Part shown: one piece after another, positions 24,144 through 44,660 of the stretch
How the letters are laid out: the number at the start of each line of letters is the position of its first letter
Numbering within the stretch: position 1 is the first letter of the stretch
DNA from: a virus
Lineage: Duplodnaviria; Heunggongvirae; Uroviricota; Caudoviricetes
Length of the DNA: 46,177 nucleotides
Strand: one strand, 5' to 3'
Virus record (IMG/VR): IMGVR_UViG_2627853910_000001
The notes under the pieces: generated by a model
Databases searched by the model: none
Told to the model about the DNA's origin: nothing
Seen by the model: the letters and a program-made list of their open reading frames with translations, nothing else
Made by a program: the position numbers and the translations under genes

Positions 24144-24704
24144 TTATTCTTCCTGCTTAATAAATCGGGATTCCTGGAGCGCCTGAAGCGCAAAATTAAT
24201 CTCGTCTTCAATAATGCGTTCGATCTCCCTGGCTGTTTTGCCTTCACAACGGGGAGCAGCTCTTGGAGCAATACTAAATAAGCGGCTACGCAATTCATTA
24301 GCTGCCAGAAATGCATCATCCCTGACCGCATCTTTAGCGATGAGAGAGCCTTCCTTTTCTTCAAATTCAAGGCGTTTCAGCTTTGCCTGATAAATTTTTT
24401 CTGCGGTCTTAGCCTTGTTGAATTGCACCGCAACACCGGAAGTACCACCAGCTAATCCGGCATCATCAGCGGGTAACTCTGGTTGTTCCGAAGATATCCC
24501 ATGCCCTCTTTTTCCATTTTCAGCAGATACCTCACGACCAACCTGTCGGCTCGCTTCATAAGCCGCACTGGCTTTATCAAAATCCAGCTTGCCGCTTTTC
24601 AGCACTGGAATGCGACCGGAACGACAGAGCTTCGTAACCATTGCCGGAGAAATACCTTTCCGGCGGGCAAACTCTGACTTACTGACGATGGCCATTACTT
24701 GCAA
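24144..24704 (-). CDS. Terminase small subunit (Nu1-like, N-terminal HTH)
   Basis: 186 aa immediately upstream of terL; SKSEFARRKGISPAMVTKL HTH. Confidence 0.55.
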   Translation of the reverse strand: MQVMAIVSKSEFARRKGISPAMVTKLCRSGRIPVLKSGKLDFDKASAAYEASRQVGREVSAENGKRGHGISSEQPELPADDAGLAGGTSGVAVQFNKAKTAEKIYQAKLKRLEFEEKEGSLIAKDAVRDDAFLAANELRSRLFSIAPRAAPRCEGKTAREIERIIEDEINFALQALQESRFIKQEE

Positions 24705-25285
24705 CCATTAGCAAGATACTGAACAAATCCCTCATGCGTTTCATGCGCGTCGTGGTACTGACGATAAACATCCAGCAACAATGCAATTTCCATATCCGTC
24801 GCGGGAATACGTTCTTTATCAATAGCCAGGTACTTAATTTGAACAACAGGGGAAGAATTATCGTCTTCTTCCTGCGGCTGTTCATCGCTTAACATTTCGT
24901 CAAGCTCTGCATCATTAAACCCAAGCAGATCAATATCAAAATCATCATCCATTAACTCTTTGACTTCTTCGGCCAGAAGCTGCATATCCCAGCCAGCATT
25001 TAAGGCCAGCTTGTTATCTGCAATCCTGTACGCCTTCTTCTGTTTTTCAGAAAGGTTACTCAACCGAATCGCCGGAACTTTATCCATTTCCAGAATTTCG
25101 GCTGCTGCAAGCCGCCCATGCCCCGCAATCAGTTCATTCTTTTCATCGATCAGCACAGGATTAGTGAAACCGAACTCACGGATACTGTTCACCAACTGTT
25201 CAACTTGCTCATCTGAATGAGTCCGTGAATTTTTGGCATATCTGAGCAGCTTACCGACTGGTAAATATTCGATTTTTAGAGCCAT
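24695..25285 (-). CDS. ParB/Srx-fold (ParB-like nuclease domain) protein, copy 1
   Basis: GHGR motif in ParB N-terminal-like domain; overlaps terS start by 10 nt; paralogue of 27952-28575. Confidence 0.6.
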   Translation of the reverse strand: MALKIEYLPVGKLLRYAKNSRTHSDEQVEQLVNSIREFGFTNPVLIDEKNELIAGHGRLAAAEILEMDKVPAIRLSNLSEKQKKAYRIADNKLALNAGWDMQLLAEEVKELMDDDFDIDLLGFNDAELDEMLSDEQPQEEDDNSSPVVQIKYLAIDKERIPATDMEIALLLDVYRQYHDAHETHEGFVQYLANGCK

Positions 25286-26578: not shown

Positions 26579-27958
26579 CTACTTAATCAACGGCCGGAAA
26601 GCCGCCAGCACATCATCAGATCGTCCGATTGTTGAACCACCAGGCAACGGCAACTCAAACTCAAAACGAACAGCTTTCTCCAGACTCGCCCAACTAAGGG
26701 AATCATCGTTAATGACGTGCAAATACCAGCTCTTACAGTTGAATATTGACCGCTTAATCCTGAAACCATGTACACGACACAACTGCTTCACTTCATCATC
26801 AGAGTGAAACTTCTGGTAAAACCAGTGCCCCTTCCGGTACAACGCGGTAAAACCGTTATGATCAATAAAATAAAGCCGGCTTTTGGAACTCGCCGCTTGT
26901 GTTTGCTTCAGGACTGTTTCCAGCTCTCCACGGCTACGACCAGAAAAGAATATTGACCCACCAGCTTTACACAGGCCTTTTAGAACCGTCAGAACGGACC
27001 ATTCAGCCTCGACACTATCGACCGAGTTCAAAACGCTATCGCAAATCACGTAGTCGTAACGCCCTCGCGTTTTTAAGTCGTCCACCAGCGTATCAATCAT
27101 CCGGTTTGTTGCGGCCCTATCCAAAGTGTTTCCAGCGCCCTTACGGCGGAAAAGCTCGAGATCATGCAGGTTATATCCCTTTGCCCTGAGCATTCGCGCG
27201 TAGTCTCCCTGCCCCGAGCCAAAATCAATTCCTCTTGGCGTCTTGGCAATGATCGGGAGGATCAACGACTCATACAGGTTTGATTTCAGGCTGCCACCAT
27301 TACGCAACCGCATAAGCTGCGCATACGTCTGGATGTATGTTGTTTTCTCCAGATGAGAATACTCAAATACACCATAAGTTTTATTCAGATAACTTTGGTA
27401 TTTTTCCTTCTCAACATCAGGGATCACAAACACCGTTAGCGGTGTGCGCGTCATCTTCGCTGCTAATGCATACTGAGCACAGTGAATAACCTCACCAGAC
27501 TGAGTCGCAACACAACCACCCCACGGACCATACTTGATAACCAGTTCCGCTATGTTCTTTCGAACATATGCCATTTTCGCGCGCATATTGCCTGAGATCT
27601 GGCTTGCCGATACCTGAACAAAACCATGCTTATCTTCCAGACCTGACACCCTGCAACGCTCATCTCCGCTATCAAAATCCGTTCCGTTATGCAGTTGGTT
27701 AAACCGTACTTCGTCGTATACCGTCGTTTCACAGGGCAACACATACACCGCAGCACTCGTTATTCCCAATTTACGTAGCGCCTTCGTCCTTTGGTGTCCC
27801 GCCACCAGCAAATCGCCGCGCACTATCAATGGCTTCACAAGCCCCAGCTCCCTGACGCTTTCCGCCAGCCTCGCAAGATCATCCTCACCGATAAAACGCG
27901 GGTTATATTCCGCGCCGCGTAGGTGCGTTATGTCGTAATTGAGGTGAAGCATCAGCAC
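26579..27958 (-). CDS. ParB-N-like domain fused to class I SAM-dependent methyltransferase
   Basis: N-terminal VAGHQR ParB-like motif; C-terminal IDFGSGQG and YDYVICDSVL motifs typical of SAM methyltransferases. Confidence 0.6.
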   Translation of the reverse strand: MLMLHLNYDITHLRGAEYNPRFIGEDDLARLAESVRELGLVKPLIVRGDLLVAGHQRTKALRKLGITSAAVYVLPCETTVYDEVRFNQLHNGTDFDSGDERCRVSGLEDKHGFVQVSASQISGNMRAKMAYVRKNIAELVIKYGPWGGCVATQSGEVIHCAQYALAAKMTRTPLTVFVIPDVEKEKYQSYLNKTYGVFEYSHLEKTTYIQTYAQLMRLRNGGSLKSNLYESLILPIIAKTPRGIDFGSGQGDYARMLRAKGYNLHDLELFRRKGAGNTLDRAATNRMIDTLVDDLKTRGRYDYVICDSVLNSVDSVEAEWSVLTVLKGLCKAGGSIFFSGRSRGELETVLKQTQAASSKSRLYFIDHNGFTALYRKGHWFYQKFHSDDEVKQLCRVHGFRIKRSIFNCKSWYLHVINDDSLSWASLEKAVRFEFELPLPGGSTIGRSDDVLAAFRPLIK

Positions 27959-28575
27959 ACCTCCCCAGCCAGCAATGCGGATACAAATCCGATATAGCTG
28001 CCATTATCATCAACATAACGAGACACCGCGCAGTCAAAACGATCCGCTTCCTCATCCGTTGCTGGGATTTTATGACCTCCAAATGACAGGTACTGAACTT
28101 TTACGCCTGATTTGGCCTCATCCTTCTCAAATGGGATATCCATACCCTCTGTGTCATCGTAGACTGCCGCACTCAATAAGTTATCCAGTTCGCGCTGAGT
28201 AAAACCAATTGAGTCCAGAGCAAAATCATCGGCCGCAAGATCTGCAAGCTCCGCGCTTAACAGCTCTTCATCCCAACCAGCATTCAGCGGAATACGGTTG
28301 TCGGCCAGACGATATGCCTTCTTCTGATTCTCCGTTAGCCCTTCCAGAACAATGCAGGGAACATCATCCATCCCCAACTGAGTGGCCGCAGCAATTCGAC
28401 CATGACCAGCAATTACAACGTTGTTCTCGTCTATCAGGATCGGATTAGTCCATCCGTACTCCTGTATGCTGGCAACAATCTGATCTACCTGCTCCACGGA
28501 GTGTGTGCGAGCGTTCTTTTCATAACCAATCAACACAGAAAGTGGTAAAGAAACCACATTAAGATGTTTTGTCAT
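27952..28575 (-). CDS. ParB/Srx-fold (ParB-like nuclease domain) protein, copy 2
   Basis: Paralogue of 24695-25285 (IAGHGR, NQKKAYRLADN, LNAGWD); overlaps downstream gene start. Confidence 0.6.
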   Translation of the reverse strand: MTKHLNVVSLPLSVLIGYEKNARTHSVEQVDQIVASIQEYGWTNPILIDENNVVIAGHGRIAAATQLGMDDVPCIVLEGLTENQKKAYRLADNRIPLNAGWDEELLSAELADLAADDFALDSIGFTQRELDNLLSAAVYDDTEGMDIPFEKDEAKSGVKVQYLSFGGHKIPATDEEADRFDCAVSRYVDDNGSYIGFVSALLAGEVC

Positions 28576-28810
28576 GCCGTTTATCCGCTAAAATCCCCTC
28601 GCTTGTGCAAGCAAGTGGGCCTCGGTTTGTATCCACGGCACCCTGTGGGTATGAATGACTGTCGTCAGGTCGCAACTGACGGCGGTCGCCCACCTTCCAG
28701 TAATAAAAAAGCAACCAGCATTAACTCTACAGCGAGCTGGAGTTAATGAGGCAGCTTTGGTTTGCGCATTATCGCAGCCCCTGGTAAGCACAAGAGCTGC
28801 TGTAATGCTA

Positions 28811-28840
28811 AAAAAACAAAACCACCCGCAGGTGGTTTTA
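28811..28840 (-). terminator. Terminator hairpin ACCACC-CGCA-GGTGGT with A-run/T-run flanks
   Basis: 6-bp GC-rich stem flanked by A6 and T4; follows the minus-strand gene ending at 28868. Confidence 0.5.
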
Positions 28841-28867
28841 TAAATAAATAGCAAACAGGTATCTGCA

Positions 28868-29275
28868 CTAATCAGATAAACCAAACTTCTTCTTTGCCAA
28901 TGACTTGAGAAGTTCTACACCAACATCCTTCATAACAGCCAATGGCTCATTGCTAATTTCTTTTAGTCTAGCGAAAACATCTTTGCTCTCTAGTGCACAG
29001 GCAAAATCCTGTCCCTCTGTAGTCAATCTAATATCTACATCAACAGTCCTCATTCCTGCAAAGGAATTAACATAGCCAAGACGCAGAGGATCACGCGTTT
29101 CCATCTTCATATTGCTGATAAAACCTTGCTCAATCAATTGCATATAATGAAACATGCCCTTTTCTGAGGCTATATCAAACCCCGCATCTCTTAGTTGATT
29201 TACTGTTATGAACGTGCTTTCTGAATCCAAAAACACAGTCAGCATCTTTTTTAGATAATCTAGATCGGTGCGCAT
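28868..29275 (-). CDS. Hypothetical protein
   Basis: Start set at internal ATG preceded by AAGGAGG RBS (29281-29287). Confidence 0.4.
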   Translation of the reverse strand: MRTDLDYLKKMLTVFLDSESTFITVNQLRDAGFDIASEKGMFHYMQLIEQGFISNMKMETRDPLRLGYVNSFAGMRTVDVDIRLTTEGQDFACALESKDVFARLKEISNEPLAVMKDVGVELLKSLAKKKFGLSD

Positions 29276-29721
29276 TTTACCCTCCTTAAATGGAACGCAA
29301 ATGTTACACAACCTTTAAAAAAGACACATTGTTTTATTTATGCCTCATTTTAATCGACCAATTACTGCCTAAATTTATCAATCAATAATTGCTACCGCTT
29401 ACGCCGAAAAGCTCTCTGCGCCACTAAGATGCGCCACAGGACACCAGCAATAACCACCAGCGAGATACAAAAACACACGGCCACAACCATCAGAAAAAAT
29501 GCCAAGACCATTCATGAAACTATCCATTTTTCAATGAATACCTCCAGTAATATCAAGAGATACGCCGTACCCAGCGCGGTTCCTACCGATATAGCTAAGA
29601 CAAACCTCAAAGATAACGAGGTATCTTTCGCTTTTCTCCCAGACGTAAGCGCCAGCCAGAAATACCAACAAATCTCTTATTGGAAGCGGAAACCAGAACA
29701 AATCACTCGGCAAGTCCACGG

Positions 29722-30177
29722 TTATATCCTTCCATTCATTTTTATCGGATGACCAGATAGCCTTACGCAGTTGAGCTGTAAAGCTCCGGTATCAACTAAC
29801 TGATCAACTAACATGATTAGAGCTTCATATTCAGACTGATAGCTAACCTGACGCATTCGACCGCCGTTGTTCTCCAGAATGTCGGCCACCTTTGCAGCCA
29901 ACTCGCTTAGACAGGAGAACTTATTCCCATATATCGTTTTATACTCGCGCTTCTGGCATTCTTCGGCTTGCGGCTGGTTATCGAGAGCTATCAGCGACCG
30001 ATGGCTATCAAGGAAGTCCACAATCTCATTCAGGCACTCTTTGGCTGCCTCATCGTGACTTTTTCCGTATGCTTCATGGAGGACTTTCATCCTCATCATT
30101 GCTCCGTCACACATAATCGAAAGCGCGTAAAGCACATCACTAATCGCCATTTCTTTTTTGGTGCTTGTCGAAGGCAT
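29722..30177 (-). CDS. Hypothetical protein
   Basis: 151-aa ORF in accessory cassette. Confidence 0.4.
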   Translation of the reverse strand: MPSTSTKKEMAISDVLYALSIMCDGAMMRMKVLHEAYGKSHDEAAKECLNEIVDFLDSHRSLIALDNQPQAEECQKREYKTIYGNKFSCLSELAAKVADILENNGGRMRQVSYQSEYEALIMLVDQLVDTGALQLNCVRLSGHPIKMNGRI

Positions 30178-30251
30178 CCCATGTTCTCCTTTGTCTGGAT
30201 GTAAAAAAGCCCCGGCAATTGCCGAGGCTCGTTGTTCGTTATCGTTACGGT

Positions 30252-30452
30252 TTAATGCTCGCGTCGTCCGGCGACAACTTCGGATTTGTATTTCAGGTCG
30301 CCCAGCAAGAATTGCAGCTTAAGCATCTTTGCCGCCGTGTAGTTCCCTGATTCCACAACCTCTTTCATGAGGTCATAAACGGCCGCTACATCATCAGCCA
30401 GGAACTCTTTGCGTTGCTGCTCAGTCGCACGTTTGAAGGAAATACGCATCAC
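30252..30452 (-). CDS. Hypothetical small protein
   Basis: 66-aa ORF overlapping upstream stop (coupled). Confidence 0.3.
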   Translation of the reverse strand: MMRISFKRATEQQRKEFLADDVAAVYDLMKEVVESGNYTAAKMLKLQFLLGDLKYKSEVVAGRREH

Positions 30453-30718
30453 TCATCATCTCCTGCCGCACATACAACCTCACAAAAAACATCAGCGGAA
30501 TGTTTCTCCTTGAACGAATGACGCTCAAAACCGCACTCAATATCAGGCGCAAAAACATCCACCACATACGGTCTTTCAGAATGTTCGTTTTCCCAACGAT
30601 AAACCGTAGTGACGTTGAAATGTTTTAACGCTTCACGGAACTCAACGCTGCCCGTCAGGTTTTTTGAGGTCAGGTATTGCAGGAGGTTTTTTACTACTTC
30701 ACGGTCTTGTACTTTCAT
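30449..30718 (-). CDS. Hypothetical protein, first gene after repeated promoter cassette copy A
   Basis: ATG immediately follows the repeat, which supplies GGAGA RBS. Confidence 0.45.
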   Translation of the reverse strand: MKVQDREVVKNLLQYLTSKNLTGSVEFREALKHFNVTTVYRWENEHSERPYVVDVFAPDIECGFERHSFKEKHSADVFCEVVCAAGDDE

Positions 30719-30835
30719 CGGGTTATCTCCGGTTTAACCAGGGCGGGTATCGCTCGGTTTCGGGTATAACCTTAGGAAATTTTTTCCCACCTGTAAAGCA
30801 CTTTTTATATAAATCTATAATTATATAATTCTATG
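30719..30835 (-). repeat. Repeated promoter/leader cassette, copy A (~117 bp)
   Basis: Near-identical (1 mismatch) to 44539-44655 and ~95% to 35440-35547; ends at the start codon of the downstream gene. Confidence 0.85.
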
Positions 30836-31418
30836 CCACTTGCCAGAGAGCATCATGCAACTGGATACCTCCATTGCACTGGTTGCCCCAGCCATGCCAG
30901 CCATCAGGTAAATCACCGCGAGCAAACAGCTCAATACGAGGAACATCACCTAACAGCTTTACCAGCTTGTCACGGACCACATCAGGCTTCCGAGAATGCT
31001 CCAGACGAGGCGATGTAAACGACTGAATGATCCCCGCATCAAGACGGGTCGGCAGTTTGCCTTTTACCGCAAACAAGCAATCTTCACTGTTTGCACGAGT
31101 CATATGCCCCATCCCCATCACCAGCTTATCTGGTTGTCGGCTACCACATTTGTTCCATGTGAAGCCCTTCATGGTCATCAGCCTGAATCCCCATGCTTTA
31201 ACCACCAGCAACGCTTCTTCTGGCTGAGTCGGAACCCACCACATGGCCAACAAACACGATTCAGGATTAGCAAGCTGCCAGACAGGAATACGAGCAATCT
31301 CCTCAGCTTTCATCGTTGGATACTTAAAACCAGCTCCACGATTCCCATCCTTACACTTGTCTTTGTATTCCCAGGGGGGATCTGCATAAATCAGATTAAA
31401 CAATGCAATTGCCTCCAT
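30831..31418 (-). CDS. MT-A70-family DNA N6-adenine methyltransferase
   Basis: DPPW catalytic motif (YADPPWEY) near N-terminus. Confidence 0.8.
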   Translation of the reverse strand: MEAIALFNLIYADPPWEYKDKCKDGNRGAGFKYPTMKAEEIARIPVWQLANPESCLLAMWWVPTQPEEALLVVKAWGFRLMTMKGFTWNKCGSRQPDKLVMGMGHMTRANSEDCLFAVKGKLPTRLDAGIIQSFTSPRLEHSRKPDVVRDKLVKLLGDVPRIELFARGDLPDGWHGWGNQCNGGIQLHDALWQVA

Positions 31419-31725: not shown

Positions 31726-31801
31726 TGGTGGCCCCTACCGGATTTGAACCGATGACCGTGCGATTATGAGTCGCCTGCTCTAACCACTGAGCTAAGGGGC
31801 C
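31726..31801 (-). tRNA. tRNA with CAU anticodon (Ile2/lysidine-type or Met)
   Basis: 76-nt cloverleaf GGCCCCTTAGCTCAGTGGTTAGAGCAGGCGACTCATAATCGCACGGTCATCGGTTCAAATCCGGTAGGGGCCACCA; acceptor and D-arm identical to E. coli ileX-type tRNA as recalled; encoded CCA. Confidence 0.85.
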
Positions 31802-31894: not shown

Positions 31895-31970
31895 TGGTTG
31901 ATGCGTGCGCCCATGAGAAAAGCGCATAGAATGTTGTAACTATATATTTATATAATTATAGAAATATATA

Positions 31971-32180
31971 TTACTTTGGACAGTTGATTTCCCATGCCCT
32001 GTTATGAGCCAGAATATCTTTCTTTGTCTGTCGGTCCATAACATCGATGTCGTGATCAGTCAGGTAGATGGGCTTTACCCAATCACAGGCGGTATCAACC
32101 ACCACCGGGACGCTTCCACGACTCCCGCAGCTCGCGATCAACATCGTCATCAGCCATATGGTTAACACTCTGCTGTACAT
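31971..32180 (-). CDS. o-spanin (Rz1-like lipoprotein), overlapping 3-prime end of i-spanin
   Basis: Signal peptide with lipobox LIASC; overlaps the i-spanin gene. Confidence 0.55.
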   Translation of the reverse strand: MYSRVLTIWLMTMLIASCGSRGSVPVVVDTACDWVKPIYLTDHDIDVMDRQTKKDILAHNRAWEINCPK

Positions 32181-32373
32181 TCCCCACCTCTTTTGTCACT
32201 TCTATACGCCGCTCCGCAGTGGCTTTTACGGCGGCTGCATTCTCATTAATGCGCTGCTTTTCAGCTTCATCTTCGGCCTTTTCTCGCCCCTTCATACGAC
32301 CAAAACCAAACGCGCCAAATGCAACCAATATAATTGTGCCAATAAATGACAAAACGGCCTTCAAACCAGTCAT
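32095..32373 (-). CDS. i-spanin (Rz-like)
   Basis: N-terminal TM helix then charged coiled-coil; directly after endolysin. Confidence 0.6.
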   Translation of the reverse strand: MTGLKAVLSFIGTIILVAFGAFGFGRMKGREKAEDEAEKQRINENAAAVKATAERRIEVTKEVGNVQQSVNHMADDDVDRELRESWKRPGGG

Positions 32374-33577: not shown

Positions 33578-33589
33578 TGAAATCCTCGT

Positions 33590-33625
33590 TAAAAAAAAAA
33601 AGCCCCGCCGAAAAGGCAGGGCTTC
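33590..33625 (-). terminator. Intrinsic terminator immediately upstream of holin (tR-prime-like position)
   Basis: 10-bp stem (1 mismatch) with GAAAA loop followed by T11 on minus strand. Confidence 0.6.
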
Positions 33626-34012: not shown

Positions 34013-34315
34013 TCATGCCACAGCCCCTCTCAACGGCTTAACTTTGGCTAATAAGGTGTTAAACAACATGGAGTTAGGATTCATGCCAAATGGCAATTCC
34101 GGTTTAGCGGAGTAGTACAGGCAACCATTTATTTTCCTGGTTGTTATCTGTCCTTCGGCAACCATGCTTCTCAGTCTGCAACGCATAGAGTTCTGCGACA
34201 CACCAATGTGCTCCGCGATTACGTCCACTTTTGAACATGGGTGATCGGTCAGGAAATTAATCACATCTTGGGGGTTAATAATTTTGCGTTTCATTGTCGA
34301 GGCGTCCTTATACAT
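34013..34315 (-). CDS. Small winged-helix/HTH DNA-binding protein (candidate regulator)
   Basis: 100 aa; HTH-like segment SKVDVIAEHIGVSQNSMRCRLRSMVAEGQI. Confidence 0.4.
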   Translation of the reverse strand: MYKDASTMKRKIINPQDVINFLTDHPCSKVDVIAEHIGVSQNSMRCRLRSMVAEGQITTRKINGCLYYSAKPELPFGMNPNSMLFNTLLAKVKPLRGAVA

Positions 34316-34371
34316 TTATATAAATATATAATTCTATATACGGCGGGAGATATCCCGCCGTAGGCTTACTG

Positions 34372-35439
34372 TCAGGCTTTCAATAGCGATTCTTTCAGAT
34401 ATCGGGCATCAGCCAGGGCGTTTGGAGTAATCTTGCGAACCCATGCATTACGGGTTGGACTCCACTTAAAGGCGCGTGATTTAAGCAGCGAACGAATGTT
34501 TGCCTCTGGTTTGCCAGGGAAATAAAACAGGATGCGGTTATCCTCTGGATCTATCTCCATAGAAAAGCCGTCGTATTCTTCGCGCTGTGCTCCTGTTACA
34601 GACTTGACCGATTCAAGCTCCTTAATACGGCTCTGTAGTCGTTTGATTTCGGCCTTATTGTTGCTCAGTGCGTATGAAGGGAATCCGATGTGCCCACAGA
34701 AATCTCCGGCCAGTAACTCTTTGGCTTCGCTTTCTGTAAACCTGAGATCGATTAATGCAGAAAGCTGCTGTAATTGGTCTTTTTTGTATTTGCGAATGGC
34801 CTTATTTGCGGCCTTCATTTTGACGTGTGACTTCATGCAGCCTTGCAGCTTACGAAGCAACTTAAATAGCGCATCAGGATCATCAGACGAAATTCCATTA
34901 CGACCAACACCTGCGGCTTTGCTCTCGTAGTGTGATGCTTTACTTTCGCATTCAACAAACGCTTTTCTGAATAACGCATCAGCTTTAGACAAACGGCGGC
35001 GATGGCCTTTCGCGCTATAATGGTCAACTAAAATCGGCTGGCCTAACGGGATCACATCCAACAGGTCATGCGCTCGCTTATGCGCTACCGCACCTTCTTT
35101 TCTGGCTTTTTCTGCACGAGCAATATATCGGGCAAGACGCGCGTTCTGGCGTTCCTGATAGGTGTTTACGTAATCATCTCCGCGCTGCTGCTGTTCAAGC
35201 CATGCTTTGCGCAGATCTTCTGTTACGTCCACCAGCTCCGCAGGGATACAACCAGTTTGGGCTTCATAAGAGTAACCATCCTCATAGATACGCCCATCGT
35301 CTTCAACAAAGAAAAAGGTTTCGTGCTCATCGCTTTTGACCATACGACCATTAACATGGCGTAATAGGTAGCCAGTATCAGTGCTTAACAGGCTGTTAGG
35401 GTTGTTGATCCAGTCAGAAATAATTACTTGTTTATTCAT
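34372..35439 (-). CDS. Conserved hypothetical protein (possibly DUF3560-type; recalled, unverified)
   Basis: 355-aa ORF starting right after repeat copy B; basic helical central region. Confidence 0.45.
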   Translation of the reverse strand: MNKQVIISDWINNPNSLLSTDTGYLLRHVNGRMVKSDEHETFFFVEDDGRIYEDGYSYEAQTGCIPAELVDVTEDLRKAWLEQQQRGDDYVNTYQERQNARLARYIARAEKARKEGAVAHKRAHDLLDVIPLGQPILVDHYSAKGHRRRLSKADALFRKAFVECESKASHYESKAAGVGRNGISSDDPDALFKLLRKLQGCMKSHVKMKAANKAIRKYKKDQLQQLSALIDLRFTESEAKELLAGDFCGHIGFPSYALSNNKAEIKRLQSRIKELESVKSVTGAQREEYDGFSMEIDPEDNRILFYFPGKPEANIRSLLKSRAFKWSPTRNAWVRKITPNALADARYLKESLLKA

Positions 35440-35547
35440 CAGATTTCTCCGGTTTAACCAGGGCGGGTATCGCTCGGTTTCGGGTATAACCTTAGGAAAT
35501 TTTTTCCCACCTGTAAAGCACTTTTTATATAAATCTATAATTATATA
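35440..35547 (-). repeat. Repeated promoter/leader cassette, copy B
   Basis: ~108 bp shared with copies A and C; lies between Q-like gene and next gene. Confidence 0.85.
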
Positions 35548-35608
35548 TTTATAGATTTTCGATGTTCCCGATGTCTACACACCATCAAAACAGCTCAAAA
35601 TGACACTT

Positions 35609-39257: not shown

Positions 39258-39283
39258 CTGCAAGCGGGCTAACGCCCGCTTAT

Positions 39284-39392
39284 ATGATTATAGATTTATA
39301 TAATTATATAAAACGCTTTCCATCCGCCAAAAAGTTGGTTATGCTTACCTCGTTCTATAAATATAGATTTATAGAATTATATAACCAAACAC
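39284..39392 (+). promoter_or_regulatory. AT-rich iterons upstream of parA (candidate centromere/operator)
   Basis: ATTATAGATTTATATA at 39287-39302 and variant at 39362-39377. Confidence 0.45.
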
Positions 39393-39407
39393 ATGGAGTC
39401 TCGACAA

Positions 39408-40061
39408 ATGACTATCTCTGTAGGTATTTTCAACGGAAAAGGCGGCGTAACCAAATCAACAATTGCCCGTGCTTTAGCAGTTGCTTATGCAAAGGCTGGC
39501 TGGAATGTATGCCTGATCGATATGGATGTGCTTAACGGAACGGTAACGCGTTGGGTACAACGCAGAATGGCCAACAATATCGAACCAGCAATCGCGGCGC
39601 AGCCGTGCGGCACACCATCACAAGTCCAGAAAATCATCGAATCAGAAGTATACGACCTGGTTATCGTTGATGGCGGTGCCTACGCATCTGAATCAGTACC
39701 GAAGCTATCTGAATTTCTGGATATGGTTATTTTGCCAACCCGATTCTCTACCGATGACCTGGAAACCACCGTTAACACTGCTCACGGCATCGTTAAAAAG
39801 GGTGTGCCAATCAAGAAAATTTGCATGGTGTTTTCCGGCGCGGCTGAAAATGAAGCTGACTATATTGAAGCCCAAGAGTACCTGGCTAATACGCCATACT
39901 TTGTTGTCGATAAGTACATTCCCCACAAGCCAGCTCTGAGCAAAGCTCAGGATAAGGGCTTAAGCCTCATTGAATGCTCATACGTTGCGCCACGCAAAAA
40001 GGCAGACGACGTTATTCAGGGGATTATCAACCAGCTTGAGGCTCTGACTACTGCCGCGTAA
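39408..40061 (+). CDS. parA: ParA-family partition ATPase
   Basis: Deviant Walker A GKGGVTKST; start set at ATG with GGAG RBS (track ORF begins 39393). Confidence 0.8.
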   Translation: MTISVGIFNGKGGVTKSTIARALAVAYAKAGWNVCLIDMDVLNGTVTRWVQRRMANNIEPAIAAQPCGTPSQVQKIIESEVYDLVIVDGGAYASESVPKLSEFLDMVILPTRFSTDDLETTVNTAHGIVKKGVPIKKICMVFSGAAENEADYIEAQEYLANTPYFVVDKYIPHKPALSKAQDKGLSLIECSYVAPRKKADDVIQGIINQLEALTTAA

Positions 40062-40104
40062 TATATAATTATAGTTTTATAGATTTATATAAGAGGGGAT
40101 ACAC

Positions 40105-40750: not shown

Positions 40751-40772
40751 AAAAAAGGCCCCCGAAGGGGCC
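40751..40772 (-). terminator. Terminator GGCCCC-GAA-GGGGCC with T-run on minus strand
   Basis: GC stem; A6 on plus strand upstream gives T6 after hairpin on minus. Confidence 0.5.
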
Positions 40773-40778
40773 TAATCG

Positions 40779-40901
40779 CTACTTGCTGCTAATGTTTATC
40801 GTCACATTCAGAGCGTTATCAGTAATCTTCCAACCCTCCCCATGTGGCGTAAACAAAGCTCCAGTAACAACGATAAAAATACACATACAGTATTTTTTCA
40901 T
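40779..40901 (-). CDS. Small hydrophobic peptide (40 aa), candidate type I toxin or small membrane protein
   Basis: MKKYCMCIFIVVTGALFTPHGEGWKITDNALNVTINISSK; terminator 7 nt downstream. Confidence 0.35.
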   Translation of the reverse strand: MKKYCMCIFIVVTGALFTPHGEGWKITDNALNVTINISSK

Positions 40902-40966
40902 TGTGTGGCCCTTACAGGCCGTTTCACGGCATCTCCACCGACGAAAATGACGCGAGAGCAAGCACT

Positions 40967-40983
40967 CCGCTTGTGCTTGCGTG
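40967..40983. repeat. 17-nt direct repeat CCGCTTGTGCTTGCGTG (copy 1, in putative 5-prime UTR of small ORF)
   Basis: Identical 17-mer at 41216-41232; copy 1 sits in an 8-bp hairpin. Confidence 0.7.
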
Positions 40984-41149
40984 TACGGCAAGTGGATGAT
41001 CCTTTCCTTAAAGTCGGTGCCCGGGTGCGAATCGGCGAAAAGGCCCCAAGCCATATTACACGTCCTCGCCTTCATAATGAAGGAATAACAATTGCTTTTA
41101 TTACATGTAATTACATCCGAAGAAGTTAAAAAACTTCATTCTGCATGAA

Positions 41150-41349: not shown

Positions 41350-41552
41350 TGTCTCTGTTAAAATCCCGCCGTATTGACATGAATGCGCCATTGGTGGACA
41401 CTTTCCGAGCCGTAGCAAAATCTACGGCCGGGATTGGCGTCCCGATAATCATCATGGCGCATACCGCGTTAGCGGTTTTTTTATGCGTAAAGCACGGCTA
41501 CACCCGAATTATGGTGGGGCGTGCGGGGGAGCCGTAAGGCTCGCCGGGTATC

Positions 41553-41840
41553 ATGATGACCGGTTACGCCAACCCTGTACGTCTCACCACCTCACTGATT
41601 GGCGTCAGCGGTGGTGATTATTCCAATATCAAAACTGGAACTATCATCATGACAAACTTACCCCATGACTATTACGTCAACCTCGTAAAGATCCTTCTCA
41701 AGAAAGCCTCATACGCCGATAAATTCCGCCTGGCTGAAATCATCGAGCGCGAAGCTATGCGCATCGCCAGCAACGATAACGCTGTTTCTGACGCAAAAAT
41801 CTCCCTCGTAACCAAAGTAGTTATGGGAGGTGCAAAATGA
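41553..41840 (+). CDS. Hypothetical protein translationally coupled to antirepressor (icd-like position)
   Basis: Stop overlaps antirepressor ATG (ATGA). Confidence 0.4.
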   Translation: MMTGYANPVRLTTSLIGVSGGDYSNIKTGTIIMTNLPHDYYVNLVKILLKKASYADKFRLAEIIEREAMRIASNDNAVSDAKISLVTKVVMGGAK

Positions 41841-44157: not shown

Positions 44158-44538
44158 TTACTTAACGAGAAATAAAAATGGTTTATTGTTCGGAGGTGTA
44201 ATCGGGGCTGGCTCGCTTTTGCTCATGCGATCAGTGTACCAGGCCAGCTCCTTGTCAAAGTAAGCCTGATTAAAATAGGCCATGAATGTAGTTTCAAATC
44301 CATAACGACCGCTAATACGCAGCATCTGATTGCCGTTCTCTGTTTCCAGATATACCTGGGCACGTTCCTGATTCTCCTTCAGCCAGGTTAAAGCCTCGTC
44401 GCACGAGGACACACGATACTCATCATCGTAGCCGTCATCGATGCGGCTTGAAGAAGAACGGCAAATCACGCCAACAGAACCAGCCAGGATAGTTTGAATT
44501 TTAAGGAAAGCGTTTTTGCGGATTTTAATCATGCTCAT
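44158..44538 (-). CDS. Hypothetical protein, first gene after repeated promoter cassette copy C
   Basis: 126-aa ORF; ATG immediately follows the repeat. Confidence 0.45.
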   Translation of the reverse strand: MSMIKIRKNAFLKIQTILAGSVGVICRSSSSRIDDGYDDEYRVSSCDEALTWLKENQERAQVYLETENGNQMLRISGRYGFETTFMAYFNQAYFDKELAWYTDRMSKSEPAPITPPNNKPFLFLVK

Positions 44539-44655
44539 CGGGTTATCTCCGGTTTAACCAGGGCGGGTATCGCTCGGTTTCGGGTATAACCCTAGGAAAT
44601 TTTTTCCCACCTGTAAAGCACTTTTTATATAAATCTATAATTATATAATTCTATG
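44539..44655 (-). repeat. Repeated promoter/leader cassette, copy C
   Basis: 116/117 identical to copy A. Confidence 0.85.
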
Positions 44656-44660
44656 AGCAC

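Follow-up and report, generated by a model that had tools for sequence, protein, structure and literature searches.

A six-gene, two-unit mosaic accessory region between the methylase and packaging genes of an Escherichia coli phage-plasmid

Introduction

What is encoded between the DNA-methylase gene and the packaging genes of a common lineage of E. coli phage-plasmids, and what might it be for? The question is raised here by positions 28868-30835 of IMG/VR virus record IMGVR_UViG_2627853910_000001, a 46,177-nt stretch of caudoviricete DNA that was analysed as a whole and is referred to below as the window. It covers almost the whole of a non-mobilizable E. coli plasmid of 46-49 kb, which doubles as a temperate myovirus. 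This lineage is present in 69 of 5,426 complete E. coli genomes and its exact proteins occur on at least 1,000 contigs, yet its accessory region is annotated solely as 'hypothetical', the only public name that any of these proteins carries. A reading made from the sequence alone had described the region as one cassette of four genes for small proteins (89, 66, 151 and 135 amino acids, aa), lacking recognisable motifs, driven by one copy (copy A) of a repeated promoter, and had proposed them as candidate anti-defence or host-takeover genes. Our analysis shows that the region is a six-gene, two-unit mosaic accessory region, non-virion in content, and yields a corrected gene map in which a missing gene (smpA) is added, an internal terminator is placed, and fixed and exchangeable parts are told apart.

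Results

Two units and two terminators

In the direction of transcription, the region and its flanks are laid out as follows (E, expect value; pI, isoelectric point).

30831-31418: MT-A70 methylase gene (Pfam E 2.9e-23), flank of the region
30715-30835, minus strand: promoter/5' untranslated region module copy A, a 121-nt repeat ending at the orf89 ATG
30449-30718, minus strand: orf89, 89 aa, acidic, pI 5.2 (phrog_6143, E 3e-52)
30252-30452, minus strand: orf66, 66 aa from GTG, or 65 aa from the ATG at 30449, the PGAP call in relatives (phrog_6621, E 7e-49)
30201-30230, minus strand: terminator 1, intrinsic, 20 nt past the orf66 stop
29722-30177, minus strand: orf151, 151 aa (phrog_14707, E 2e-103)
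29512-29719, minus strand: smpA, a pseudogene here; intact form 68/70 aa
29362-29515, minus strand: smpB, a pseudogene here; intact form 50 aa
28868-29275, minus strand: gene for a DUF2513-like winged-helix protein, 135 aa, the minority allele of a variable slot
28809-28841, minus strand: terminator 2, intrinsic, closing the region ahead of the ParB-like gene
27952-28575: ParB-like gene, beyond terminator 2

The location between MT-A70 and the ParB/packaging genes was borne out by Pfam matches in both flanks, and all four of the open reading frames (ORFs) proposed earlier exist on the minus strand as genuine genes. Judged by substitution patterns, they are under purifying selection. Compared with the diverged relative L014, nonsynonymous (pN) and synonymous (pS) divergence was 0.16 and 0.67 for orf89 and 0.16 and 0.83 for orf66, and the two products kept 71% amino-acid identity while synonymous sites were nearly saturated.

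The copy A repeat and the closing terminator are also present as claimed. They do not, however, enclose a single four-gene cassette driven by copy A, since terminator 1 splits the stretch, which holds six genes, two of them pseudogenes in the window. Unit 1 consists of copy A, the overlapping genes orf89 and orf66 (the start of the latter, which encodes a basic protein of pI 9.1, overlaps the stop of the former as TGATG) and terminator 1, and it is fixed in the lineage. Unit 2 consists of orf151, the coupled pair smpA-smpB, an exchangeable last gene, which is DUF2513-like here, and terminator 2.

Terminator 1 has a 10-bp stem with 7 GC pairs followed by U6 (-19.4 kcal/mol, z -3.9) and is as strong as terminator 2 (11-bp stem, -19.9 kcal/mol, z -4.6). 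Because it lies inside the stretch, copy A directly serves orf89 and orf66 only. The Shine-Dalgarno sequence of orf151, AAGGAG, starts approximately 12 nt past the U-run of terminator 1, and there is therefore no room for a unit 2 promoter between them; a promoter scan found no separate promoter-like site for unit 2. On this layout, it seems that unit 2 can be transcribed only by read-through, by antitermination or from a promoter inside orf66. The terminator 1 hairpin and the ribosome-binding site (RBS) that follows it are conserved at the DNA level in L014 and in a second diverged relative, L015.

Both of these relatives carry an extra, highly conserved non-coding element of about 250 nt between their orf66-like and orf151-type genes (L014 3290-3590, L015 3060-3380). 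It is flanked by two intrinsic terminators, the second of which is the one kept in the window. This element had no Rfam match and is a candidate small RNA.

A conserved promoter-like module ahead of orf89

Two further copies of the 121-nt repeat are present in the window, at 35435-35555 and 44535-44655, where they belong to two other operons, and each copy ends in ATG. Within copy A, three to four TTATAKAW iterons are followed by AAAAAGTGC, the hexamer TTTACA, 17 nt that include GGAAA-N3-TTTCC, TAAGGT, a leader of about 50 nt, GGAG and the ATG. The putative promoter elements are located as follows.

30805-30836: TTATAKAW iterons, 8 bp
30792-30797: -35-like TTTACA
30769-30774: -10-like TAAGGT, with the GGAAA-N3-TTTCC palindrome in the 17-nt spacer

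The promoter activity of copy A is putative and consensus-based, and copy A was not called by the promoter scan. The module is nearly invariant in L014 (2706-2822) and L015 (2454-2570), where the proteins encoded next to it are 45-75% identical to those of the window and silent sites are saturated. It is therefore a regulated, phage-wide control element. The leader of about 50 nt is predicted to fold so as to cover the RBS partly (-16.5 kcal/mol, z -3.8); its conservation and folding suggest control at the RNA level, which might be exerted through an antitermination or translational-control site.

Clusters of TTATAKAW iterons with an 8-bp period were observed at eight intergenic sites, which include all three module copies, positions upstream of the lysis/holin genes, and both flanks of parA (39393-40061).

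30805-30836, 31940-31971, 34308-34339, 35525-35556, 39280-39311, 39353-39392, 40061-40100 and 44625-44656: iteron clusters

This arrangement looks like that of a single DNA-binding protein, possibly the partition centromere-binding protein, which would contact both the par locus and lytic promoters.

orf89 and its relatives in other phages and plasmids

orf89 is a stand-alone copy of an alpha/beta domain of about 95 aa (phrog_6143). Eleven close homologues were found, and a profile search of 1.84 billion representatives returned 42 relatives, many of which are 160-256 aa long and carry the orf89 domain at the N terminus, followed by heterogeneous, acidic C-terminal extensions. Members of the family are acidic (net -6 to -21). 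We found no match for orf89 in Pfam, PADLOC, NCBIfam or the PDB, and no relative had a match in Pfam or among PDB sequences.

The genomic settings of these relatives are varied. In Pavtokvirus-type phages (the Erwinia phages PEp14, Pavtok and Stean, together with metagenomic relatives), the orf89-family gene opens a series of small genes and is transcribed away from the small-terminase gene, with an intergenic region of about 380 nt between the two. A Rac-like prophage has it between the gene for a cI-like repressor, which directly precedes it, and kilR, and on a 98-kb plasmid contig a relative is found immediately after hok, in the vicinity of Rep3, ParM and DUF4942 genes. orf66 is confined to the lineage of the window and was not found next to orf89-family genes elsewhere. 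We also considered whether orf66 is the split-off C terminus of the long orf89-family proteins and rejected this, as no similarity was detected (hmmsearch E > 0.1).

Because orf89 relatives head early operons elsewhere, the protein is acidic and DNA-modification genes adjoin the unit, the role that we rank first for unit 1 is early host takeover or counter-defence, a reading that is plausible for orf89 but, in our estimate, less likely than not. The only positive hints for it are positional and circumstantial, namely the operon-leading relatives of orf89 and the flanking DNA methylases.

A coupled membrane-protein pair in the 400-bp gap

The sequence-only reading had left 29312-29721 unassigned, apart from a possible 62-aa hydrophobic ORF on the minus strand at 29531-29719. 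Alignment of the window with 10 relatives showed that this gap holds two translationally coupled genes for small membrane proteins, smpA and smpB. Intact smpA encodes 68 aa from a GTG (RBS GGAAGGA-N7-GTG), or 70 aa from an ATG where a 99-aa variant of the orf151-slot protein lies upstream, and its product has two hydrophobic segments. Its TGA overlaps the smpB ATG as ATGA, and smpB encodes a single strongly hydrophobic membrane segment followed by a basic tail. Both genes were intact in 12 of 12 relatives examined. PGAP annotates smpB in relatives (WP_021542835/WP_170939178). For every relative examined, by contrast, the RefSeq/GenBank tables list no smpA, although the gene is intact and conserved there (for example at L086 1676-1880). 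The smpA homologue of L015 (4126-4329, 67 aa) gave pN 0.38 and pS 0.98, and the smpB homologues of L014 and L015 (50 aa in L015) gave pN 0.43 and pS 0.70.

The 62-aa ORF does exist, and we considered it as a gene of its own. This candidate was rejected, since all relatives read the stretch of its second half in a different frame, up to the TGA that overlaps the smpB ATG; the ORF is thus the frameshifted front of smpA.

Three lesions disable the pair in the window. smpA has gained one base in the run at 29636-29638 (plus strand CCC, as compared to CC in relatives), which causes the frameshift. smpB has gained one base in the run at 29489-29494 (plus strand A6, as compared to A5) and carries a GAG to TAG change at 29392-29394; a 39-aa ORF (29392-29511) that keeps the membrane segment is still open. 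The two insertions are the only coding indels over 9 kb relative to the closest plasmid, and of the nine mutations unique to the window in 4.8 kb, three lie within the 358 bp of smpAB, all of them disabling. The lesions are unique to the window among the 69 E. coli genomes with the segment; pE200086_49, the closest of these, differs over the 401-bp segment by exactly the same three changes. The two sequences thus make up a natural triple-hit knockout beside an otherwise identical intact allele. We read these lesions as probable real inactivation, possibly selected.

Such a cluster of disabling mutations might also be expected if the region encoded addiction or toxin modules, with orf89-orf66 as a type II toxin-antitoxin (TA)-like pair, smpB as a type I-like membrane toxin, or both. 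In line with this, orf89 and orf66 are small, overlapping genes for an acidic and a basic protein with their own promoter-like module and terminator, smpB encodes a hydrophobic 50-aa peptide with a basic tail, and an orf89 relative adjoins hok on a plasmid. However, searches of Pfam, NCBIfam and PADLOC showed no toxin or antitoxin homology for orf89-orf66 or any other TA-family match, so that the generic architecture alone fits type II. No Rfam antisense family was detected at E <= 10 in 29312-29721, nor did Rfam match anything else in that gap or around terminator 1, and the coupling of smpB to smpA is atypical of type I toxins. In addition, orf66 is absent beside orf89 relatives elsewhere, some of those relatives belong to lytic phages, and the element already carries RelE/ParE-type and ryfA-type loci. 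We consider addiction very improbable.

Two exchangeable slots in a conserved frame

Distribution was compared across related phage-plasmids, as the earlier reading had proposed. In PLSDB, orf89-orf66 was present in 56 plasmids, the C-terminal half of orf151 in 20 and the DUF2513-like gene in 7. Among close relatives, the third slot is occupied by orf151 or by a 99-aa protein that shares only its first 65 or so residues, and the fifth slot by the DUF2513-like gene or by an acidic protein of 136/141 aa. All four combinations of these alleles were seen, indicating that the two slots assort independently. In L014 and L015, the gene order is MT-A70, the promoter module, orf89-like, orf66-like, a protein with the orf151 N-domain (123 or 260 aa) and the smp gene or genes, followed by an SH3-like protein related to the acidic allele and then ParB.

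The suggestion that the region is organised like phage morons was partly upheld. In its favour are a promoter-like module and terminators belonging to the region, two slots with swapped alleles, and a dip in guanine-plus-cytosine (GC) content at the DUF2513-like gene; unit 1, on the other hand, is fixed in the lineage. Gene by gene, the DUF2513-like gene is moron-like both in being replaced and in base composition, and the orf151 C-terminal half in being replaced, whereas orf89-orf66, with 56 plasmids and backbone-like GC content, is not moron-like in either respect. As to a promoter and terminator of its own, the terminators are present, and TTTACA-17-TAAGGT is recognisable and strongly conserved as a putative promoter, which the scan did not call.

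With MT-A70 as the anchor, a search of 185k species genomes identified 33 other Enterobacterales prophages with the methylase, none of which had cassette genes nearby. Conserved pairing of the methylase with the cassette is thus confined to the lineage.

A winged-helix protein and a two-part protein in unit 2

All four proteins had been described as lacking recognisable motifs. This held for orf89, orf66 and orf151 in that none has a Pfam match, but not for the 135-aa protein, which is a DUF2513-like winged helix. It aligned to positions 3-96 of the 100 in the Pfam DUF2513 profile (PF10711) with 19.4 bits and E 1.4e-3, below the gathering cut-off of 29.6, and matched phrog_585 with E 9e-26; PGAP names near-identical proteins 'DUF2513 domain-containing'. 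An AlphaFold2 model built from 22 homologues had a predicted local distance difference test (pLDDT) score of 94 and showed a helix-turn-helix, a beta-wing and C-terminal helices. This is a winged-helix fold, for which the criteria were a three-helix bundle with a helix-turn-helix and, after it, a beta-hairpin wing. Structurally, the model is MarR/PadR-like and STIV F93/TubR-like. Foldseek returned no hit at E <= 0.001 and only generic winged-helix matches. We take DNA binding to be probable for the winged-helix proteins encoded in unit 2.

Homologues of the 135-aa protein that are 49-81% identical are encoded on chromosomes of Citrobacter, Edwardsiella, Pantoea, Pectobacterium, Serratia and E. 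coli. Five prophage contigs carry the gene between holin-lysozyme-Rz, which it directly follows, and the terminase genes. This is the classical accessory slot of lambdoid phages and is equivalent to the position in the window; the gene is thus shared horizontally with lambdoid prophages. The GC content of the DUF2513-like gene is 0.37-0.41, as compared to 0.47-0.52 in its flanks, and in most relatives the slot holds the unrelated acidic 136/141-aa protein (pI 4.3).

orf151 is a two-part protein, in which an N-terminal helical hairpin of about 65 aa, also matching phrog_8319, is constant in the lineage and the C-terminal 85 or so residues are exchanged; versions of 99, 123 and 260 aa occupy its slot in relatives. 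Its 15 homologues all belong to the lineage. orf151 of the window had no hit to Pfam DUF1804. Its N-domain homologues in L014 and L015 aligned with the C-terminal part of DUF1804 (positions 92-151) with E 7e-3 and 3e-3, respectively, below the cut-off (16.6-17.7 bits, as compared to 29), and the L015 homologue matched phrog_756, 'DNA binding protein', with E 2.7e-4. We treat these likenesses as a possible lead only, not as a result.

Together with the fold of the DUF2513-like protein, they would fit regulators of the phage itself, that is, winged-helix proteins (DUF2513-like, possibly orf151 and orf89) that steer late transcription, DNA modification or the choice of packaging site for the adjacent methyltransferase, ParB and terminase genes. 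In the direction of transcription, the region is followed at once by the ParB-like and terminase genes, and in prophages a DUF2513-like gene is found a short way ahead of the small-terminase gene. Such ready loss would not be expected of an essential regulator, however: only 7 of about 56-65 related plasmids have the DUF2513-like gene, which gives way elsewhere to the unrelated acidic protein, and the C-domain of orf151 is replaceable. The DUF1804 and phrog_756 matches are also below or near threshold. Regulation of the phage's own genes is thus quite unlikely to be the role of the region.

Searches for known families

Confident homology to structural or housekeeping phage proteins, which would have refuted the earlier reading, was looked for in Pfam, PHROGs and NCBIfam and was not found. 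The six proteins and their alternative alleles matched no anti-defence family in Pfam or PHROGs, which are general libraries, none dedicated to anti-defence. NCBIfam and PDB sequence searches showed no known anti-defence match, and the comparison of folds rests on the one confidently modelled protein. Structure prediction, a check that had been proposed, thus gave a confident winged helix for the 135-aa protein and a poor model for orf151, and matched no anti-defence fold. In PADLOC-DB 2.0, the only match was at chance level (orf151 to PtuB, E 0.014, 12.8 bits).

The absence of a credible PADLOC hit also bears on whether these genes are lysogenic-conversion or defence morons that protect the plasmid-carrying cell, with smpA/smpB acting in exclusion or abortive infection and the slot-5 gene in defence or regulation. 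A pair of small membrane proteins is typical of exclusion functions, the DUF2513-like gene has low GC content and sits in the lambdoid moron slot ahead of a terminator, and allele replacement at two slots resembles defence hotspots. Unit 2, however, has no separate promoter-like site, its genes are co-oriented with lytic genes, and smpAB has been lost here with no visible compensation. Furthermore, orf89 relatives occur in strictly lytic Erwinia phages, in which lysogenic conversion is meaningless. We regard protection of the plasmid-carrying cell as unlikely.

The element and its gene neighbourhood

The 3-kb stretch around the region matched 65 PLSDB plasmids (best CP055628.1, 99.5%) and the Yersinia phages vB_YpM_39/41/44. 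In the annotated relative NZ_CP057564.1, the element encodes RepA, ParA, a cI-like HTH/S24 repressor, Ref, DUF3560, two holins, a GH108 endolysin and the MT-A70 methylase, then, downstream of the region, three ParB/Srx-N-domain proteins (one fused to a methyltransferase), terminase, portal and capsid, and beyond these a P2-like contractile tail, an invertible tail-fibre segment and a RelE/ParE pair. Between about 38.0 kb and 4 kb of the window, every gene runs on the minus strand; the accessory region is placed between the lysis/tRNA/MT-A70 block and the ParB-like/terminase block. Membership of the pSLy3 phage-plasmid group was considered and found to be wrong, pSLy3 being a subgroup of the SSU5 supergroup. 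The set of papers searched contained no mention of DUF2513 or of vB_YpM_39. The neighbouring features are as follows.

26579-28575 and 24695-25285, minus strand: three proteins with ParB/Srx N-terminal domains, in a row upstream of terminase
31729-31801, minus strand: tRNA gene between the lysis genes and MT-A70, tRNA-Met in the annotation of Yersinia phage vB_YpM_39
31971-32180, minus strand: 69-aa ORF with a lipobox-like LIASC
32095-32373, minus strand: 92-aa ORF, membrane segment at the N terminus, tail charged
33583-33591: intergenic A-run upstream of the first holin gene
40751-41048 (minus strand), 41409-41482 (plus strand) and 41507-41594 (plus strand): Rfam sites

One of the ParB/Srx proteins (459 aa) is fused to a class-I S-adenosylmethionine (SAM) methyltransferase domain; with MT-A70, at least two DNA-methylase candidates thus flank the accessory region. 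The 69-aa ORF partly overlaps the 92-aa ORF and is unannotated in the relatives inspected, and the two look like an i-spanin/o-spanin pair that completes the lysis cassette. The A-run differs in length from that of the closest plasmid and is the sole non-coding indel in 9 kb. In the relative L008 (8592-10450), five extra small genes lie between the DUF3560 gene and the holins, without counterpart at about 34013-34372 of the window; this interval is a second variable slot of the same late-strand array. The Rfam matches, all above the gathering score, were to ryfA (a locus of the type I toxin type), isrK and C4 antisense RNA. They suggest an immunity region of the P1/P7-like immI type, with ORFs of 95 and 391 aa after it.

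Discussion

We infer that the region consists of dispensable host-interaction genes and not of morphogenesis or replication genes. The best overall explanation, which we put forward tentatively, is a two-unit mosaic accessory region of such genes, in which unit 1 would serve takeover or counter-defence. orf89 would then be made as soon as the copy A promoter fires. smpA and smpB would act in the inner membrane in an exclusion- or toxin-like manner and be dispensable, and they may be counter-selected in the plasmid state, as the three independent disabling mutations in this copy only would suggest.

Several points weigh against this explanation. The main one, for any functional reading, is that copy A may fire early or late; the iterons, the palindrome and the conserved leader would equally fit a late promoter that depends on an activator or antiterminator, and the region sits within a long co-directional gene array running from lysis to tail. 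None of the proteins matched a characterised anti-restriction, anti-CRISPR or other anti-defence family or a PADLOC model, no dedicated library being among those searched. The winged helix is a generic fold, and the AlphaFold2 model of orf151, built on a shallow alignment, has a pLDDT of 55, with residues 10-60 or so alone reaching 69-83, so that its fold is uninformative. Finally, the smpAB lesions could in principle be assembly errors, as two of them lie in short homopolymer runs; the third, however, replaces G by T, and all other coding genes over 9 kb are free of frameshifts.

A more specific proposal is that the orf89 domain of about 95 aa constitutes a new immediate-early takeover or counter-defence family, found in E. 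coli phage-plasmids, Rac-like prophages, lytic Pavtokvirus phages of Erwinia and hok-adjacent plasmid regions, and released here from a promoter module whose 8-bp iterons also flank parA. We think it unlikely in this full form. If it were true, the parA-flanking iterons would tie silencing in the plasmid state to the control of lytic genes, and a counter-defence or takeover role of orf89 would add a family distributed over lytic phages, prophages, phage-plasmids and plasmids. Failing that, the region represents routine accessory-gene content of an ordinary kind.

Comparison with known systems

Leading early genes can have anti-restriction roles, as do T7 0.3 (Ocr) and ArdA of plasmid leading regions. 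By analogy, the orf89 family would be comparable in being acidic, first in early operons of lytic and temperate phages, and located beside hok. In contrast, orf89 has no sequence similarity to Ocr, ArdA or KlcA in Pfam or PHROGs, and what it shares with them is position only.

Small phage membrane proteins such as T4 Imm/Sp and HK97 gp15 block superinfection or modulate lysis. smpA and smpB may be likened to them as small, coupled, dispensable membrane proteins, although no homology to them was detected and the element already has a full lysis set elsewhere (two holins, the GH108 endolysin and the spanin-like ORFs).

The 135-aa protein differs from DUF2513 (PF10711)/PHROG 585 in scoring below the Pfam gathering cut-off, and resembles it in its full-length profile alignment, in the naming by PGAP and in the winged-helix model.

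The region as a whole is best compared with phage morons and accessory slots, such as the lambdoid lysis-terminase junction and the P2/P4 hotspots. It departs from them in that unit 1 is fixed across the lineage, not sporadic, that unit 1 has for its promoter a phage-wide module present three times, not a private and constitutive one, and that unit 2 has no promoter of its own. It shares with them small non-essential genes bracketed by promoter-like and terminator sequences between late-gene blocks, slots in which relatives carry different alleles, and a DUF2513-like gene of lower GC content that is common to the lambdoid lysis-terminase slot.

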